Source: a phage. From it: a stretch of DNA of 52,976 nucleotides. Positions 3,170-42,616 of the stretch are shown here, one piece after another. A program made the position numbers and the translations under genes. The stretch's first letter is position 1; every line of letters begins with the position of its first letter. The notes below the pieces were generated by a model that was given only the letters and a program-made list of their open reading frames with translations, did no database searches and was not told where the DNA came from. Where the stretch lies: NCBI GenBank assembly GCA_014691105.1, contig GCA_014691105.1_4891.1, one strand, 5' to 3'.

Positions 3170-3796
3170 TTACTCTTCAGTTTCTTGTGCTTCAGTTTCA
3201 GGTTTTTTGCCAGTTACTGATTTGCCATCAGTCACTTTACCAGATTTTACATCATTACGGTAATAGGACATATAGGATTGGACAACACGTTTTGCCCTAA
3301 TATCATCCGCTTCCATCCCACAGGCTTTCATGGCATCGGCCAGCGCCAATTTGGAATCTTCTTTGTCCATCAAATTGTAGTCCTTGAATACTGCATAGCA
3401 GGTATCTTTGGTTGACGGACCGGATGAAGTTTTGCGGGTGCCACCAGCAGATGCTCGTGTTGTCGCAACTTTGACCTCTTCAACTTCCAGTTGGTTAAGC
3501 TCATCAAATAGGGCTTTCACCAGCACTTCTTTTGAGTCTTTGACACTTACAGAACTTTCATCATTAAGGGACTTAATCATCTTAATGATCTGGTTATTGG
3601 CAAAGTACTGCAGGCTATCCATCTGCACTACAATAGTCCCAAGACTTTCAGTAGTCAGACCAGATTTTACAGACTCGACAGAAAAAGCGGAAGTCAGGTA
3701 AACATAGTTGATAGTAGTCATTGATGTATCCTCGTCAATAGAATTTTGGTAAGCGCCAATCCCTGGCAAGTAAGTCCAAACATGACAACTTGACAA
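3170..3796 (-). CDS. hypothetical protein (up to 208 aa)
   Basis: ORF track; probable start at an internal Met (MTTINYVY...). Confidence 0.5.
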   Translation of the reverse strand: MSSCHVWTYLPGIGAYQNSIDEDTSMTTINYVYLTSAFSVESVKSGLTTESLGTIVVQMDSLQYFANNQIIKMIKSLNDESSVSVKDSKEVLVKALFDELNQLEVEEVKVATTRASAGGTRKTSSGPSTKDTCYAVFKDYNLMDKEDSKLALADAMKACGMEADDIRAKRVVQSYMSYYRNDVKSGKVTDGKSVTGKKPETEAQETEE

Positions 3797-3814
3797 AAGT
3801 TGTCATGATTGAAA

Positions 3815-3994
3815 TCACTTCAATTTGTTAAGTATTTTGGTCAATAGCTCAACTCTTTCTTCCTGGTCAGTAGGGTCAAAGTTTTCAATTGACTCCTTCC
3901 AGTCCTCCAGCAGTTCCTTTTCATTAAATATTGAAATGTCAAGAAATTCAACCAATAACTCAACTTCTTTTTTAGTCAATTTCAAATCTTTCAT
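3815..3994 (-). CDS. small early protein, paralogue family member 3 (59 aa, unlisted)
   Basis: Hand translation: MKDLKLTKKEVELLVEFLDISIFNEKELLEDWKESIENFDPTDQEERVELLTKILNKLK, preceded by a GAGGG-type RBS; the overlapping plus ORF 3825..4025 is low-complexity and probably spurious. Confidence 0.5.
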   Translation of the reverse strand: MKDLKLTKKEVELLVEFLDISIFNEKELLEDWKESIENFDPTDQEERVELLTKILNKLK

Positions 3995-15522: not shown

Positions 15523-18479
15523 TGCACACGATGTTGCTTAAAGACGGATCAGACCATCGAGCTAATGTCGAAAGCCTTATCGAAGGTCACCACCATTTTC
15601 TTGAGCGCAATACTGGCAGAACTGACGACGCTACGCGTCAGCACTATATCTTCAATCCAGAAGGAGTAGTGTCGAACAACCGCCATTTTATTGCACACAC
15701 CATGATGGAGTATCAACCTAACGGTGATGCTCCGTCTGAAAGTCAGTCGCTGCTAATACTCGGCGAAATTCACGCGTACCTTGCTACTAAGGAACAGCGG
15801 TACCTTGACAAAGCAATTGAGTACTTCAATGCTTACGTCAAGTACTATTACGAGGGGGACCCAATCCCTGATACTCCTCGTCGCTGGATCGCTAACTGGC
15901 TTTGTAATGGCAAAGAGCCTGTGCTAGCCAGCTTCCCAATCAACCCTGATTCACCAACACAAGGCGGCTATAAAAATGTGCCAGTTAAATTTGTTAACGG
16001 CAAAGCACAAATCCCTCATGGTTCTCCTTTCTGGGGCGAGTACCTGGATGTTGCTACTTGGGCCCACAGGGGACACATGGCTTGGCCTGCTATTAATGGT
16101 GGTGTCCGTGTTATTAAAAATAAAGTTGACTGGGACGATATTTACAACAATTATCGCATCACTACCATGCCAGCTGACCCGTGGAATCAGTTAGCCTGGA
16201 TTGACTGGCCGAGGTATCTGGGTGAACCAAGCTACACTGTGGACTGGTCAGCGGCTGAACCTCCTGTACATCTCATCGAGTATATTGTTGCATGGACCAA
16301 TAACAAGATTGGTGTTCTACCTGGCAAAAACGATGAGCTATGGGGAGGCGAGATTCTTGAGACTGGACTGCCTGACTCTCGCAGAGGTGAGATTCAGCTC
16401 CGTGACCACACTGTTAACGGTGTGTATCTGCTTAACTATGCCGTTAAGCTTCCTGTTGAACACGGTGGTTATTTGCTTAAGCGAAATGAAGTATGGCACA
16501 ACAGACCGGTAAACGTTCCATTGTACGGCGAGCTTCAACGCGGTAATGCTGCTGATGCTGAGTTGTGGTTCTGTGACTGCTGCTATATGCTGTGGCGAAT
16601 TACTAACGAGCAAAAGTATTACAACGCTTGGCAAGCTGTCCTGTTTACACTGGAGGAGTATATTGACATCGATAAACAAGACCAGTTCTTCCGACAAGAC
16701 ACTCACGCGTCGTCTCCGTTTACTGATGGCATCTCTTATGATTGGTCTTATCCTGAACTGGCACAAGCTATATATTCACGTGATGAAAATGGTTATATAG
16801 TTCTACGTCAGAACGAAAAAGCTCAATCATCTCTGGAGCAGCAGGCTGTATGGTTTAAGTGTAAGCCAACAGCTAAGATACGTACAGAAGTTGGGGGCAA
16901 AGATGATGCTGGTCAGAATATCAGTGTCAAGGTGGAAATGTACATGAACCGTGAAAAGGTTGACGTCGAGCAAAACATCTATCGTTTTGTCACACAGCTA
17001 CCTGCTCTTGGTGCTTCACCTGCTAACTACGACATTCCATTAAGCGATTTTGTCGCAGGTACTAAGCCAGATGGTTCTGAGTATATCTTAGCTGATATTC
17101 GTTCATCCACTGACTATGGCAATGCCACTACTGCAGTGTCTTACCGTACTGACATACTTGACAACAGACGTGGCAACACTGTCCGTATGACAATACCGGA
17201 TAGTTCGTCAGGTGCCATTATAGGCTTTTGGCTACTGGAATCTTCCCAGGCACCTTTAAACTCGCTGACGTATACTTCTACAGGTCCGTTGTGCATCAAA
17301 GTAACTGACGCGCAAGGCTGGAGTTGGGTACGTGATTTACCTGCCGCACCAGGATGGGTAACTCAGCAGATTCGCACCTGGGAGTTCAGGCTGGCGTCAT
17401 ACCAGGAAAACACAGGTACACCACCAGCTAGCCCACAATTCGGCGAGATTAAGCAGTTCTCGTTTGTACTGCCTGACGGCGTTAATACGTCGACAAGTAT
17501 TAGCTGGTACTGTGTGAATGATGTTCCGCCTCGCTATAACTGGCCAATTGGTTATACGATTAAGTATCGTCTTACTTTCTCGGCTGATAACCCGTACACA
17601 GCTAGGCTTGGCGACTGTACTGTGCTGGACTATGAGAATGATAACCTTGCTTACACGCCAGGTGTTATTCCGTTCTCCAACATTTATAACCCTGATTCTA
17701 AGCAGTTCGATGGTTGGCACGGTATACCTTACCCTGGCTATCAGTATCCGTTTGTCTTTACGCATGACGATACTGCAGCAGGTACAATCAGGCTGAACAA
17801 CATGGTTAACTTTTTGTACGATTCTCAGCAATGGTACTATAAGAAGTTTGGTCAGCTAGGTCCTGGTGCATCTGCTTTTATCTGGAACCGTTGGGATAAC
17901 TTTAAATACGGTGTACCTGATACGTTTACCATGTATCACTGGGGTAATGGTAGTGCATGGTCAGGTTACCAGCCTCGTGCTTATTTCTCCGCAGCACGTG
18001 GATGGTATGAGCTAGTAAACCGTGGTAAGCCAGTTCCGAGTAAGCTTATTGCTTATGTGGATAACTGGTCAAAATGGTTGCTTGACTTCATGGAAAGGTC
18101 AGGAGGTGTGTCGCCTTCTAACTTCCCACAAGAAGGTGTTGCTCTGCCAGTCCCTTCAGACTTCACAGGTCACATGTGCGGACTATGGCTTGCTGGTGCA
18201 GCTATGTCAGCCCTTTGTGGGTCAACAGTATCAGGACTGGATAAGCTGATGGACATGCTTGTCAATGAGCTGGAAGACCATTACGACATAACTGGTATTC
18301 CGGGGCATGTAATGGATGGTGGTTGGTCACCAGCGTTACGCCTTGAAACTGGTTCAGGACCTGAAAGCAACGCCATGTACTATGGTTTTTACTCTGGCGA
18401 AATATTACGAGGGTTGGGCTTATACCTGCTGTACAAAAACAAAGGGGCTAAAGCAGATATTTATGATTTAGGCCCGTAA
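15522..18479 (+). CDS. large virion-associated protein (985 aa), possible carbohydrate-active tailspike-like protein
   Basis: Long Trp/Tyr-rich ORF inside the structural operon; function guessed from composition only. Confidence 0.4.
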   Translation: MHTMLLKDGSDHRANVESLIEGHHHFLERNTGRTDDATRQHYIFNPEGVVSNNRHFIAHTMMEYQPNGDAPSESQSLLILGEIHAYLATKEQRYLDKAIEYFNAYVKYYYEGDPIPDTPRRWIANWLCNGKEPVLASFPINPDSPTQGGYKNVPVKFVNGKAQIPHGSPFWGEYLDVATWAHRGHMAWPAINGGVRVIKNKVDWDDIYNNYRITTMPADPWNQLAWIDWPRYLGEPSYTVDWSAAEPPVHLIEYIVAWTNNKIGVLPGKNDELWGGEILETGLPDSRRGEIQLRDHTVNGVYLLNYAVKLPVEHGGYLLKRNEVWHNRPVNVPLYGELQRGNAADAELWFCDCCYMLWRITNEQKYYNAWQAVLFTLEEYIDIDKQDQFFRQDTHASSPFTDGISYDWSYPELAQAIYSRDENGYIVLRQNEKAQSSLEQQAVWFKCKPTAKIRTEVGGKDDAGQNISVKVEMYMNREKVDVEQNIYRFVTQLPALGASPANYDIPLSDFVAGTKPDGSEYILADIRSSTDYGNATTAVSYRTDILDNRRGNTVRMTIPDSSSGAIIGFWLLESSQAPLNSLTYTSTGPLCIKVTDAQGWSWVRDLPAAPGWVTQQIRTWEFRLASYQENTGTPPASPQFGEIKQFSFVLPDGVNTSTSISWYCVNDVPPRYNWPIGYTIKYRLTFSADNPYTARLGDCTVLDYENDNLAYTPGVIPFSNIYNPDSKQFDGWHGIPYPGYQYPFVFTHDDTAAGTIRLNNMVNFLYDSQQWYYKKFGQLGPGASAFIWNRWDNFKYGVPDTFTMYHWGNGSAWSGYQPRAYFSAARGWYELVNRGKPVPSKLIAYVDNWSKWLLDFMERSGGVSPSNFPQEGVALPVPSDFTGHMCGLWLAGAAMSALCGSTVSGLDKLMDMLVNELEDHYDITGIPGHVMDGGWSPALRLETGSGPESNAMYYGFYSGEILRGLGLYLLYKNKGAKADIYDLGP

Positions 18480-39485: not shown

Positions 39486-39511
39486 TGTATCTCTCCTCTA
39501 AAAGATAACTT

Positions 39512-39540
39512 ATTATACCACATCACTCTCTAGTGGTAAA
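39512..39540 (-). promoter_or_regulatory. sigma70-like promoter TTTACC-N17-TATAAT (minus strand)
   Basis: Minus-strand TTTACC (plus 39535-39540) and TATAAT (plus 39512-39517), 17-bp spacer, then GAGGAGAG RBS and ATG at 39485. Confidence 0.55.
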
Positions 39541-39560
39541 GCACTTTTTACGCTTCTGGT

Positions 39561-39594
39561 AAAAATAAAAAGGACCAGCGTTAACTGGCCCTTT
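39561..39594 (-). terminator. rho-independent terminator (minus strand)
   Basis: Minus-strand hairpin GGGCCAG TTAACG CTGGTCC followed by TTTTTATTTTT. Confidence 0.65.
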
Positions 39595-39855
39595 TGGCAG
39601 GGTGGCGTAAGGAGATACAAGGCATCGTAACTATGCAACCAGGCAGCGCATATGAGATTGGCCAAAAGATTTACCATTTTAATCCCCGCGACGAGACGAA
39701 AAAGGAGGTGTCATCGAGTAGCCAATCACATATGCGTTACTTGCTGTGTGCTCTCACCGCGGAAAGTATAGAGCGTTGCACTTATCACACCGATGGAGTG
39801 GCAAAAGCACACAGCAAGTACAACCTTAGTTGTGGTGTCTTAGCACCTGAGTTAT

Positions 39856-39864
39856 TGTGGATAA
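39856..39864 (-). promoter_or_regulatory. consensus DnaA box (TTATCCACA) in a long non-coding region
   Basis: Plus strand reads TGTGGATAA at 39856-39864; a single perfect 9-mer. Confidence 0.3.
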
Positions 39865-40163
39865 CCTGCACCCGACGGGTGTCAAAAAGATACGCCAAAA
39901 CACCACAACTAAAATTGTGACCGCCGTCTACACCAGGCGCCTGGGGTCAAGGTAGCGAGCCAATACCCTTTTCAGCGTCGGAGGAATCGAACCTCACACA
40001 TCACGGCTTTTACCAAATCTCGGTCAGCGAGCAGAATTGAACTGCATTCACTGGACACCCTCACTGTTTCAACACACCAGGCTTAATTGATTGTTGATAA
40101 GAAGAGAGATGTAAGGATGTCCATTGAATGCACCTCCGTAGAGGTGCGTTCAGATCAGCGCTA

Positions 40164-40691
40164 TTATTCAGCAGCTTCTTCGTTGTCGCCTTCGATCGCG
40201 CCAGCCAGTTTAGCAGCTTCAGCTTTAGCAGCTTCTGCTTTCTGGCGAGCTTTTTCAGCTTTCTCTTCAGCTTTGCGAATCTGCTCAGCAGCTTTCGCTT
40301 CGGCTTTTTCAGCTTTGATGCGAGCACGCTCTTCAGCTTTACGCTGTTTTTCAGCGGCTTTAGCAGCATCGCGTTCTGCTTTAGCGGTATCAACACGCTT
40401 AGCCAGAACTTTACCAGTGGCTTTACGCCAGTAGGTCAGCTGGGAAGAAACAGTACCACGGGACATTTCGGTAGTGGCAACAACTTCGTCCATAACGTCA
40501 GAGCTGGACTTGCCTTCTTCATGGGCTTTATCAGCCAGGTCCCATACGTAACGTGCGCCAGTACCAGCTGCTGGATACAGTACGCCGTTAACTTCTTCTT
40601 TACCAGTTACAAAAGTCAGTTTCTCGCTCATAATTTTTTCCTCGTCTACAGGGCTTAATGTTTGTTCGTTACGTGAGTTAATATACGTCAT
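40164..40691 (-). CDS. KfrA-like DNA-binding protein with Ala/Lys/Glu-rich coiled-coil tail
   Basis: N-terminal SRGTVSSQLTYWRKATG resembles the KfrA N-terminal DNA-binding motif; C-terminus AKAERDAAKAAEKQRKAEERARIKAEKAEAKAAE; likely start at the internal Met near 40631. Confidence 0.4.
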   Translation of the reverse strand: MTYINSRNEQTLSPVDEEKIMSEKLTFVTGKEEVNGVLYPAAGTGARYVWDLADKAHEEGKSSSDVMDEVVATTEMSRGTVSSQLTYWRKATGKVLAKRVDTAKAERDAAKAAEKQRKAEERARIKAEKAEAKAAEQIRKAEEKAEKARQKAEAAKAEAAKLAGAIEGDNEEAAE

Positions 40692-40708
40692 TTAAAAGAG
40701 TGTGTAAA
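40680..40708 (-). promoter_or_regulatory. sigma70-like promoter TTTACA-N17-TATATT (minus strand)
   Basis: Minus-strand TTTACA (plus 40703-40708) and TATATT (plus 40680-40685). Confidence 0.45.
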
Positions 40709-40959: not shown

Positions 40960-42616
40960 AGCCGTTTCCCCAGTCGTAGTTCATGATTTGTGGGTAGGGT
41001 CGTTTAATCCATACCTTGATGCGCTTAGGAATAGCCAGCTCACCCTTACGGCGAATAAACTCATCGCATGTTTCAGGCGGTTCTGTTCCTGCAGCATTAC
41101 GCCACCAGGCGTCTGCCATTTGCTTAGCATTACCATGGGCCTCTATATTTACCCATGTTGTATACACTTCCAGGTTTGAGTAGTACACAACCTTTATACT
41201 GTCAGGTCGTCCCTGCTTCTGGAATAAAGAATAGTTTACCAGCGTAACATCTTTATCCACAACACGAAGCTGACCGTTAGTCATTACCTCTTCTTCTGAT
41301 GAAGTGAAGGCAATAGCAGGTCCGTTAACTGTAAACTCAAACTCATGCCCGCACATCGGATATACACCATTCTCGTCCGGCGTACTTCCTTTAGCCGGAT
41401 GCTTACACGTACGGGCTGCATAACCACTTACCTGGTGGCAGATAGGGCACTCTTTACCGCCAGGTGTTTTCTCTGACCGTTTCTTTTTCTTCTTACCAAG
41501 ACGTGGCGGAACAGCCGGGTCATCAATAGGACCAAGGTCAATGGTGTTAGATGTAAAGTCCATGACAAGACAGTCATGCTTACCAGGCGCTGTACGTAAT
41601 CCTCGACCGAGTATCTGCACCCACAAAGCAACTGACGTGGACGGGCGCAAGATGCCGAGCATATCAATCTCAGGATAGTCAAATCCTGTCGTCAATACGT
41701 TTACGTTTACACAGACCCGTGCTCGTCCGCTTGTAAACTCTTCAAGTGCGGCTTCACGTTCTTTCTTTGTAAGACCGCCATGCACAACTACAGTCTGCCA
41801 ACCTCGCAGATTAAACTCGTCTGCTATGTTGTGGGCGTGCTCAACACTTGTGGCAAATACAAGAACGTGGTTCCTGTCTTTACCGTAGTGCATCATCTCA
41901 CGAATAGCCGCGACTGTTATACTATGTTGGTTGGCTACCTTCTCAAGCTCTGACGGGATGTAGTCACCCATCCTTTCACCAACATTACTGGTGTCAATCT
42001 TGGTTAACACTTTCTTGTTGACCAGGCGTGACAGGAAGCCTTCATTTACCAGTCTGGTAAAGGCGTCAGGTGTTGTAAGGTCGTAGCAGATGTCGGTAAA
42101 TATACCACAGTCCAGCAAGTGACCCCCTGCCAAGCGATATGGAGTTGCTGTGAGTCCTGTTACCTTTACCTTAGGATTAAGCTCTTTGAAGTGAGCAATA
42201 ACCTTACGGTATGTTGTTTCAGACTTCTCAGGAACAAGATGGGCTTCGTCAATGAATATAAGATTGAACTTACCTGCTTCTTCCAGGTTCTTAATGATTG
42301 ACTGTACTGATGCTACAACGATACGACCTGAAAAGTCTTTGTGTCCTGCACCTGAAGAGTAGATTGATACTGGTGCTTGTGGCCAGTGACGAACAATTGC
42401 TTTGGCGTCTTGCTCAACCAGCTCCTTGACGTGAGTCAGTATAAGAATACGCTGACGGGGATAGCTGGTAAGAATATCCTTCATCAGCATACCAAGCACA
42501 GGTGATTTGCCTGAACCTGTTGGCATGACAATAAGTGGATTACCACTATAAGAATTGAAGTACGACCACCAAGCTGTGACCGCTTCTTGTTGATACCAGC
42601 GAGCTTCAAAAGCCAT
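40946..42616 (-). CDS. SF2 DEAD/DEAH-box DNA helicase with C-terminal zinc-ribbon
   Basis: Motif I MPTGSGKS, motif II FIDEAHLV, motif III GLTATP, motif VI QILGRGLR; C-terminal CPICHQ...CKHP...CGHE cysteine cluster. Confidence 0.8.
   Translation of the reverse strand: MAFEARWYQQEAVTAWWSYFNSYSGNPLIVMPTGSGKSPVLGMLMKDILTSYPRQRILILTHVKELVEQDAKAIVRHWPQAPVSIYSSGAGHKDFSGRIVVASVQSIIKNLEEAGKFNLIFIDEAHLVPEKSETTYRKVIAHFKELNPKVKVTGLTATPYRLAGGHLLDCGIFTDICYDLTTPDAFTRLVNEGFLSRLVNKKVLTKIDTSNVGERMGDYIPSELEKVANQHSITVAAIREMMHYGKDRNHVLVFATSVEHAHNIADEFNLRGWQTVVVHGGLTKKEREAALEEFTSGRARVCVNVNVLTTGFDYPEIDMLGILRPSTSVALWVQILGRGLRTAPGKHDCLVMDFTSNTIDLGPIDDPAVPPRLGKKKKKRSEKTPGGKECPICHQVSGYAARTCKHPAKGSTPDENGVYPMCGHEFEFTVNGPAIAFTSSEEEVMTNGQLRVVDKDVTLVNYSLFQKQGRPDSIKVVYYSNLEVYTTWVNIEAHGNAKQMADAWWRNAAGTEPPETCDEFIRRKGELAIPKRIKVWIKRPYPQIMNYDWGNGYGAR

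Follow-up and report, generated by a model that had tools for sequence, protein, structure and literature searches.

The locus studied here is a non-coding gap, positions 39595-40163 of a phage contig of 52,976 nucleotides (GenBank assembly GCA_014691105.1; this whole stretch is called the window below), and more particularly an element of 136 nucleotides (nt), derived from transfer RNA (tRNA), which is encoded on the minus strand of that gap (40050-39915). The gap is 99.4-99.7% identical to its counterpart in Escherichia phages CF2 and BEC1-17 and 99% identical to that of Salmonella phage BP63; the window is therefore a Rosemountvirus (BP63-like) genome. The island is located between helicase and polymerase genes, all genes around it are carried by the minus strand, and public records of related phages leave it unannotated or give it small hypothetical open reading frames (ORFs). 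An earlier note, made from the letters alone, had described a DnaA box, palindromes and T-arm-like hairpins in this gap, and had proposed a replication origin, a partition site, degenerate tRNA genes or a structured non-coding RNA. Its observation is confirmed and its interpretation is partly supported.

On the minus strand, a consensus scan locates a sigma-70-like promoter (TTTACA-17-TATATT, 40680-40708) at the place where a promoter is annotated in BP63. It is followed by an ORF of 155 amino acids (aa; 40164-40631) whose C-terminus is rich in Ala, Lys and Glu. The mechanical ORF list places the start of this gene at an ATG at 40691 (175 aa), i.e., within its own predicted promoter; the start at 40631, which is that of the BP63 annotation, is more plausible. 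The product had been called KfrA-like, a proposal that does not hold: Pfam detects no KfrA_N domain in it, its only Pfam match being a sub-threshold coiled-coil match to ATP-synt_B, and its sole PHROG (28664) is of unknown function. Right after the stop codon comes a hairpin (40125-40152, inverted repeat I5) with a stem of 12 base pairs (bp), a UACG loop (cUUCGg in relatives) and no U-tract. This hairpin is kept, with compensatory changes, out to Erwinia phage SOI901 and the distant IMG/VR contig L183, and it may protect the 3' end of the upstream mRNA. The unit is closed by a predicted intrinsic terminator (39561-39595, minus strand; 12-bp stem and U-run), the stem of which is kept with compensatory changes in all lineages, including SOI901 and L183. 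Promoter, 155-aa ORF and terminator bracket the gap, thus the island corresponds to the 3' untranslated part of a unit transcribed from the minus strand. Two small ORFs overlap it, i.e., the plus-strand ORF 39594-39920, rightly regarded as spurious in the earlier note, and an annotated minus-strand ORF of 54 aa (39513-39677). For both, frame and extent differ among relatives and no match was found in Pfam or PHROG.

The conservation of the gap in related phages was checked. Pieces of it are 78-91% identical between lineages, despite an identity of only ~42% for the flanking 132-aa protein between the window and fHy-Eco03, SE1_KM or SOI901. A minus-strand stretch of 611 nt has a fold energy of -237 kcal/mol versus -179 +/- 7 for shuffled sequences (z = -8.3), the region being therefore far more structured than expected by chance. 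Among the possibilities raised earlier, those of degenerate tRNA genes and of a structured non-coding RNA come closest to the data: the gap encodes several conserved RNA structures, one after the other, as in a chain.

The central link of this chain is the 136-nt element, a double T-loop RNA which gives a full-length match to the covariance model (R1) described below. Both T-arm-like hairpins and the palindrome CCAGGCGCCTGG, present at 39933-39944 as reported, are parts of this single element. From 5' to 3' on the minus strand, it comprises: (i) a linker GAAU, of which the last two bases are an invariant AU, and hairpin hp1 (GCAG-UUCAAUU-CUGC, or GCAG-TTCAATT-CTGC in DNA letters), whose loop had been recognised and which had been placed at 40032-40046, one base off its actual position 40031-40045; (ii) a near-invariant 22-nt core, UCG-CUGACC-GAGAUU-U-GGUAAA or UCGCUGACCGAGAUUUGGUAAA (40009-40030, from exact pattern scans), which comprises, besides a GG strand resembling that of a D-loop, the 5' half of helix P1 (CUGACC, 40027-40022); (iii) the 5' strand of helix P2 (GCCGU, 40003-40007), with its partner ACGGC at 39923-39927; (iv) hairpin hp3 (GAGG-UUCGAUU-CCUC, or GAGG-TTCGATT-CCTC in DNA letters), present at 39981-39995 with the loop that had been read; (v) a lineage-specific inserted domain (39938-39980), which replaces a short hairpin, hp4, and whose sequence suggests a closing stem CGCUG/CAGGCG around GCUCGCUACCUUGACC; (vi) a conserved joining strand CCUGGUGUAG, followed by the 3' strands of P2 (ACGGC) and P1 (GGUCA), at 39918-39937. 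All the helices can be formed by the window sequence (GCAG/CUGC, CUGACC/GGUCA, GCCGU/ACGGC and GAGG/CCUC) and the core UCGCUGACCGAGAUUUGGUAAA is present. In the compact members of the family, hp4 has GAAA/GUAA-type loops. The motif GCUCGCUACCUUGACC of the inserted domain is also found in fHy-Eco03 and in the distant contig L183. The palindrome CCAGGCGCCTGG straddles the insert stem and the joining strand; it is not retained in Loughboroughvirus, which reads CCCTGGCGCCGG. The first 45 nt of the element are ~91% identical between lineages where the flanking protein is 42% identical.

The element is not restricted to this lineage. Unrelated IMG/VR contigs contain exact copies of the 19-mer CTGCTCGCTGACCGAGATT, a string that starts in the 3' arm of hp1 and reaches into the core. 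Relaxed patterns together with one metagenome scan lead to ~45 distinct viral or metagenomic sequences from unrelated phages, the GC content of the contigs ranging from 26 to 59%. Their common architecture is, in the 5' part, a linker ending in AU, hp1 (4-5 bp, T-loop), UCG, P1 (CUNNCC) and GAGAUU-n(0-3)-GGUAAA, and in the 3' part P2, hp3 (T-loop), hp4 or an insert, GGUGYA, the 3' strands of P2 and P1 and, often, a U-run. The pattern scans fixed most of the core bases, so that the apparent invariance of the core is partly obtained by construction; UCG and GAG, when left free in a scan, are nevertheless unchanged among members. The covariance model R1 was built from 12 compact members and has 104 positions. 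Applied to the window, it gives 63.9 bits (E = 1e-10) over positions 1-104 of 104, and it scores 60 loci at 27 bits or more. As a control, the best score is 17.8 bits in 888 kb of DNA carrying the core 14-mer by chance, i.e., unrelated contigs from the viral 14-mer scan, which are mostly chance matches.

Among 50,697 GenBank phage records, the element is confined to the Rosemountvirus-related group. The representative genomes of 185,579 species contain a single true match (63.9 bits, the same as the window), in a metagenome-assembled contig which is probably a mis-binned Rosemountvirus contig. This contig (JAEWER010000021.1, L191) is labelled 'Bacillota bacterium', and its element matches that of the window over the aligned stretch. 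A text search of the literature found the core string in no paper. The family is thus apparently undescribed, and apparently found almost exclusively in virus sequences. Four GC-rich members (L018, L019, L163 and L175) share a conserved extension just 3' of the element, GGUCUGACAG-YCGGG-AAAGA-CCGRC; they have no recognisable P2 and may therefore be a distinct subtype.

The helices are supported by covariation across the family. The stem of hp1 is GCAG, GGUGG, GCCG, ACUG, GUUG and others, according to the member. A scan in which the P1 bases could vary shows that changes in P1 are matched by changes in the distal partner strand (UGGCC/GGCCA, UAACC/GGUUA, UUACC/GGUAA and UUGCC/GGCAA), and compensatory changes are seen at all four modelled pairs of P2 (4/4). 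Likewise, hp3 covaries family-wide, its stem differing and yet pairing in S144 (CCUGGG/CCCAGG) and in fHy-Eco03 (GCCUG/CAGGC). The evidence for hp4 is weak, the best hairpin having been picked in each sequence separately. Plain MAFFT put the register of P2 one base off and was replaced by a structure-aware parse (N-padded) and by a model-based alignment. In the latter, with 49 distinct sequences, 13 of 17 pairs have a compensatory change and 95% of cells are paired, a percentage which is inflated because both alignments were fitted to the structure, and for which the controls help only in part. The structure-aware parse gives a compensatory change for 21 of 33 pairs. For the model-based alignment, the covariation score amounts to 0.496, whereas sliding the partners lowers it to 0.02-0.08, and it is reached by none of 500 shuffles. 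The pairing evidence should be judged by the compensatory counts and the slide controls.

The two T-loop hairpins of the window both carry the T-arm signature (G53-C61; U54 U55 C56 R57 A58). Within the family, G53-C61 and U55 are invariant in both hairpins, and U54, R57 and A58 are found in all but a few members. C56 never varies in hp1 and is the usual base in hp3 (U in S144/SE4, G in fHy-Eco03). For hp1 this amounts to an invariant closing G-C, loop U2 and loop C3, and to near-invariant loop U1 and A5. The strand GAGAUU-n-GGUAAA reads like a D-loop, i.e., A14, R15, G18, G19 and A21. In a mutual-information scan the top column pairs are those of the helices, and the clearest non-helical pair joins loop position 59 of hp1 to the base that directly follows GAGAUU (C-G 12, U-U 9, R-A 5, with 3/27 exceptions). 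In the elbow of a tRNA, positions 59 and 16/17 lie next to each other. In S144 and SE4, the C56 to U change in the hp3 loop goes along with a GG to GA change in the joining strand, which is a single event. Each T-loop may dock on a GG strand, and the RNA would then present two mimics of the tRNA elbow. With respect to a canonical tRNA, the element thus has the full T-arm signature twice and a D-loop-like GG strand, but no cloverleaf and, as read from the sequence and the family consensus, no anticodon arm, no 7-bp acceptor stem and no 3' NCCA or discriminator end; moreover, the strand topology of P1 and P2 differs from that of tRNA helices. The earlier failure to fold a canonical tRNA by hand agrees with ARAGORN, which calls no gene in the window. 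Rfam gives nothing at the gathering score on the window stretch, its tRNA model included, and only noise at E-values up to 10, e.g., microRNA-like matches caused by the long hairpin M7 described below. Circularly permuted tRNA, two-piece transfer-messenger RNA, the D-arm of class II tRNA, hammerhead (CUGA...GAAA) and hepatitis delta virus (HDV)-like folds were threaded by eye; all were rejected, because the covariation of P1 pairs CUGACC with a downstream partner and there is no complementary acceptor strand.

The genomic neighbourhood of the family also points to tRNA. In 19 of 41 distinct members a tRNA lies immediately upstream, and its last base is the first base of the R1 match (Gln 10, Phe 5, Ala 3 and Met 1; for one of the Ala cases the start is two bases further upstream), and the abutted tRNAs have no encoded CCA. 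A downstream tRNA is found within 0-7 nt in 5 members. Other members, like the window, have no nearby tRNA; they often precede recombination or replication genes which, judged by their motifs, would be RecT-like, exonuclease-like and SSB-like. ARAGORN, run on the window and six related loci, finds tRNAs only in SOI901, where the syntenic gap carries two genes in the same orientation, tRNA-Pro(TGG) and tRNA-Gln(TTG). These canonical genes occupy the same genomic slot as the element and stand behind the same leader hairpin, M1. No remnant of the element was recovered in SOI901, where R1 with filters off finds only the T-arms of the tRNAs. The paper on phage S144 also describes Rosemountvirus and Loughboroughvirus as devoid of tRNA genes (PMC7432712).

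The presence of real tRNA genes at the syntenic site of SOI901, together with the lack of a detectable cloverleaf, is what would be expected if the island consisted of neutral relics of decayed tRNA genes, or of small ORFs or nothing functional. In the same direction, two GC-rich members (L184, positions 881-1040, and L172) have an hp1 that doubles as the T-arm of a degenerate tRNA-Arg(TCG)-like body, which scores 41.9 bits with the Rfam tRNA model and is not called by ARAGORN. This case is a hint that the family may descend from the 3' portion of a tRNA. Neutral decay is nevertheless hardly credible as an explanation, since the same non-tRNA architecture recurs with compensatory changes in unrelated phages, the conservation is far above that of the flanking coding sequence and the ORFs are not conserved. 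Of the former suggestion of degenerate tRNA genes, what can be retained is that the T-arm hairpins belong to a tRNA-derived RNA; it is a conserved family of its own with covarying helices, not a set of decaying tRNAs.

The abutment of the element to CCA-less tRNAs calls to mind another possibility, i.e., a new class of self-cleaving ribozyme which would cut at its own 5' end so as to free the preceding tRNA at its 3' end. The HDV-like theta ribozymes of gut phages are found in the same kind of genomic position, their 5' end being the 3' end of CCA-less phage tRNAs (PMC10879173). The start on the last base of such a tRNA in 19/41 members, the invariant AU which ends the linker before hp1 and a core as invariant as a catalytic core would all be accounted for. 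However, theta ribozymes have a nested double-pseudoknot HDV fold, whereas the element has T-loop hairpins, simply nested P1 and P2 and no HDV-type match in Rfam. Hammerhead, HDV-like/theta, twister, pistol and hatchet families likewise give no Rfam match at permissive thresholds. The helices could not be threaded, by eye only, onto hammerhead or HDV folds, because CUGA lies within the covarying helix P1. Moreover, the element is retained in phages without an upstream tRNA (window, L016, L017 and L169, among others) and its canonical T-loops favour tRNA mimicry over catalysis. A ribozyme is thus considered quite improbable.

The element is surrounded by long hairpins. The gap holds four long inverted repeats (arms of 15-25 nt, spacing of 46-58 nt), and a whole-genome scan with a stricter seed finds only two further repeats of this type. 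On the minus strand, M1 (40043-40132, inverted repeat I3) is a long hairpin whose arms, 40111-40132 and 40043-40064, form a stem of ~20 bp. It is directly 5' of the tRNA-like RNA in the window and of the tRNA genes in SOI901. RNAalifold on 7 lineages predicts 20 pairs for it, 7 of them compensatory, including many G.U pairs that could form only in a minus-strand transcript. On the other side of the element, M7 (39820-39918) is a three-way junction with a closing stem of ~22 bp (arms 39894-39918 and 39820-39844), for which RNAalifold gives 33 pairs, 7 of them compensatory. Its hairpin A, CACCCG-U-CGGGUG, is the palindrome CACCCGACGGGTG, found as described at 39869-39881, and it covaries; its hairpin B is GUUAU-CCACA-AUAAC (39851-39865). 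The fold of M7 is better on the minus strand (-47.7 kcal/mol, z -6.0) than on the plus strand (-33.7 kcal/mol, z -3.5), and in phage yarpen the pairing is kept through U.G wobbles which are workable only on the minus strand. M8 (39738-39820, inverted repeat I4) has perfect arms of 15 bp, extendable to ~20 bp, around a small inner hairpin. M9 (39640-39743, inverted repeat I2) has arms of 23 nt and contains the start of the doubtful 54-aa ORF; it is specific to Rosemountvirus, the stretch being missing from Loughboroughvirus.

A promoter within M7 (TTGACA + TATCCA) was considered and rejected: its spacer differs between the window (16 nt) and S144 (19 nt), its -10 box is poor and the promoter scan does not report it.

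RNase III cuts within long stems in the early RNA of T7 and in rRNA operon transcripts. The stems of the gap reach the size of RNase III substrates (~20 bp of near-continuous double-stranded RNA), with 20 pairs in M1, 22 in M7, ~16-20 in M8 and arms of 23 nt in M9, and they may be RNase III sites too. Like those of T7 early RNA and rRNA operons, they are stems of ~20-25 bp beside stable-RNA or mRNA segments of a single transcript; M7 differs from a plain RNase III site by its strongly sequence-conserved three-way-junction interior. A natural deletion is informative here. In rivia (MT074438, L197), a viable Salmonella phage isolate, 145 nt are deleted between two GGT microhomologies (window ~40011-39866). 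This removes P2 to P1', i.e., two-thirds of the element, as well as the 5' arm and hairpin A of M7, and it keeps the DnaA-box 9-mer of hairpin B. The tRNA-like RNA and M7 are therefore accessory, at least on the isolation host. It should be added that rivia and its relative yarpen form a natural mutant/wild-type pair.

These stems raise the question of whether the modules work only in cis, i.e., as cleavage signals (RNase P, Z or E; RNase III) that separate or stabilise the flanking mRNAs or tRNAs, the excised RNAs having no function. Four consecutive stems of at least 20 bp similar to the RNase III sites of T7 early RNA and rRNA operons, the stable hairpin without U-tract after the stop codon, the exact abutment of the element to tRNA 3' ends and the dispensability seen in rivia would all fit. 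On the contrary, a cleavage signal needs neither a 22-nt core nor two elbows, nor P1 and P2 kept across phages of 26-59% GC. In addition, the group of the window has no tRNAs to mature, yet its element is far better conserved than the flanking proteins. A purely cis-acting role is thus held to be rather unlikely.

The DnaA box at the origin of the earlier interest in the locus, TGTGGATAA, is indeed present at 39856-39864, the minus strand reading TTATCCACA, a perfect match. It falls in hairpin B of M7, which is GUUAU-CCACA-AUAAC, so that the box consists of four stem bases and the CCACA loop. The 9-mer is inside a 19-nt block invariant in all three genus-level groups that have M7; M7 and its 9-mer are absent from the syntenic L183 and SOI901. 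In fHy-Eco03 and SE1_KM (L005 and L006), M7 is located between M1 and hp1, not after the element, and it is flanked by AATGTAG and AATGCAG. M7 may thus be a mobile or shuffled hairpin module, although this is a single case. Perfect DnaA 9-mers are more numerous in the window than expected (3 versus 0.38), and boxes including those with one mismatch amount to 19 versus 13.4 expected over the whole window. The two further perfect 9-mers are at 18056-18064 and 41253-41261. The latter, which is the perfect box nearest to that of the gap (1.4 kb off, inside the helicase gene), was rejected as a partner site, since it is not conserved outside Rosemountvirus in the sister lineages examined.

An origin of replication is not supported by these data. 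The box is a single one within a hairpin, and the gap contains no cluster, only one perfect and one one-mismatch box. There is no AT-rich unwinding element near the box (GC 0.44-0.58 in 50-nt windows), the only AT-rich stretch being the terminator tail and promoter, ~300 nt away. The extremes of the cumulative GC skew are at ~5 kb and ~34 kb, not at the gap, but the skew follows gene orientation in this phage. The idea of a partition site does not fare better: the gap has no iterons, parS-like arrays or tandem repeats, apart from two weak 12-13-nt two-copy repeats, and the neighbouring protein has no KfrA domain. M7 or the whole island could also act as DNA, either as a DnaA-binding site or as a hairpin for primosome loading or replication start. 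The perfect conservation of the 9-mer wherever M7 exists, together with the 3 boxes versus 0.38 expected, leaves therefore a small probability to a DNA-level DnaA site. The island is between helicase and polymerase genes, its long inverted repeats could extrude, and G.T pairs are tolerated in single-stranded DNA hairpins too. But the 9-mer is half stem and half loop, the 19-nt conserved block is longer than DnaA needs, and M7 is elsewhere in fHy-Eco03, absent in L183 and SOI901 and half deleted in the viable rivia. With the box at 41253 not conserved, no iterons in the gap and no AT-rich element near its box, a role as DNA is considered improbable.

Several known RNAs are comparable with the element to some extent. 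In phage T4, the species 1 and 2 RNAs (rnaC and rnaD; NC_000866, 2909-3172) are small stable RNAs (119-139 nt), encoded and co-transcribed within a phage tRNA cluster directly after a tRNA, a place similar to that of the family. rnaC ends in a T-arm; rnaD, which follows tRNA-Arg, has AAUG as its first bases, and its motif UCGCUACCGGUAAG is faintly similar to the core of the family. This motif also resembles GCUCGCUACC in the inserted domain of the window. rnaC and rnaD have long had no known function. Unlike the element, the T4 RNAs have neither the double T-loop nor the P1/P2 architecture nor a shared invariant core, and homology finds no support: in the T4 region, R1 with filters off finds only tRNA T-arms (best 11 bits). 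The Y RNAs and YrlA, which are bound by Ro60/Rsr, are, like the element, noncoding copies of the tRNA elbow (T-arm and D-arm) with no decoding function. YrlA, which is encoded beside rsr, combines a single elbow with two stems, one acceptor-like and one that binds Ro60, whereas the element has two T-loop modules in another strand order, with a T-arm first. YrlA is a substrate of tRNA-modifying enzymes and of RNase P, and it has been found in phages as well (PMC4201824). There is no YrlA or Y RNA match in Rfam at E-values up to 10 for the window stretch or up to 5 for compact members. No TROVE (Ro60/Rsr) protein was found among the neighbouring genes examined, no genome-wide search having been made.

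Taken together, it is probable that the element is a tRNA-mimic RNA, excised by host nucleases and acting on a tRNA-recognising protein, and not a replication origin. The minus-strand unit would be transcribed from the promoter at 40708-40680 through the 155-aa ORF and the chain of structured RNAs down to the terminator at 39595-39561. Host nucleases of tRNA and rRNA would then excise a stable RNA, with RNase P, Z or E cutting at the tRNA-like junctions and RNase III in the long stems. The freed RNA would be an accessory tRNA mimic binding a protein that recognises tRNA, either as a decoy or sponge (e.g., against tRNA-targeting defences) or as a recruiter of tRNA enzymes. Such a trans-acting elbow mimic is ranked first, before pure cis punctuation for processing and stability and before a new ribozyme making tRNA 3' ends.

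Several points weigh against this interpretation: (i) the processing, stability and modification of the RNA as well as its binding partner are deduced from sequence; (ii) tRNA genes are missing from the window as well as from its close relatives, hence a role in tRNA maturation cannot apply here; (iii) a very conserved 22-nt core abutting tRNA 3' ends would also fit a self-cleaving ribozyme; (iv) the perfectly conserved 9-mer could be a true DnaA site in duplex DNA; (v) the invariance of the core and the percentage of paired cells are to be read with the restrictions given above.

A broader proposal is possible but should be taken as tentative only, i.e., that the family is a new widespread class of virus RNA which carries two tRNA elbows without the decoding parts and which plays an active role, as a decoy or inhibitor or as a new ribozyme. 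Its targets might be proteins that recognise the elbow, such as tRNA-targeting antiphage nucleases, RNase P or Z, or modification enzymes. If true, this active role would explain why the 22-nt core is unchanged in lytic phages of very different hosts, often inside tRNA arrays. Since phage tRNA arrays are now associated with evasion of defences that cleave tRNAs and with switches of the genetic code, a conserved RNA passenger that has gone unrecognised in them offers a specific lead that can be tested. It is also, following the still unexplained T4 stable RNAs, a second case of small RNAs encoded together with phage tRNAs. Rosemountvirus and Loughboroughvirus are candidates for therapy and biocontrol, and the gap holds their most conserved non-coding element, which ties them to a family found in unrelated phages, like an extra "gene" inside tRNA arrays. 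As regards annotation, the DnaA box of this gap should not be read as an origin and its small ORFs should be dropped.

Some minor observations concern the surroundings of the unit and the rest of the window. Right behind the terminator, the promoter scan finds an extended -10 promoter (TTTACC-17-TGgTATAAT, 39512-39540, minus strand) for the next gene (39485-39087). A block of ~31 nt at this promoter is almost invariant out to SOI901 and the distant relative L183. The promoter block GCTTTACCACTAGAGAGTGATGTGGTATAAT (window 39505-39545) is near-invariant in all relatives, these two included, across lineages where the proteins are ~42% identical. This conservation goes far beyond what a sigma-70 promoter needs, and the block may therefore double as a regulator binding site. 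A record named 'Listeria phage 220426122051' (PP583539.1) is 99.2% identical to the window over a stretch of 901 bases around the gap, the host being probably mislabelled. Finally, two near-perfect hairpins with arms of 23-24 nt and loops of 5-9 nt are found ~1.3 kb apart at 2464-2518 and 3768-3820 of the window; their sequences are related (…GTTCAT…TTGAAA…) and they may be repeated operators or terminators.

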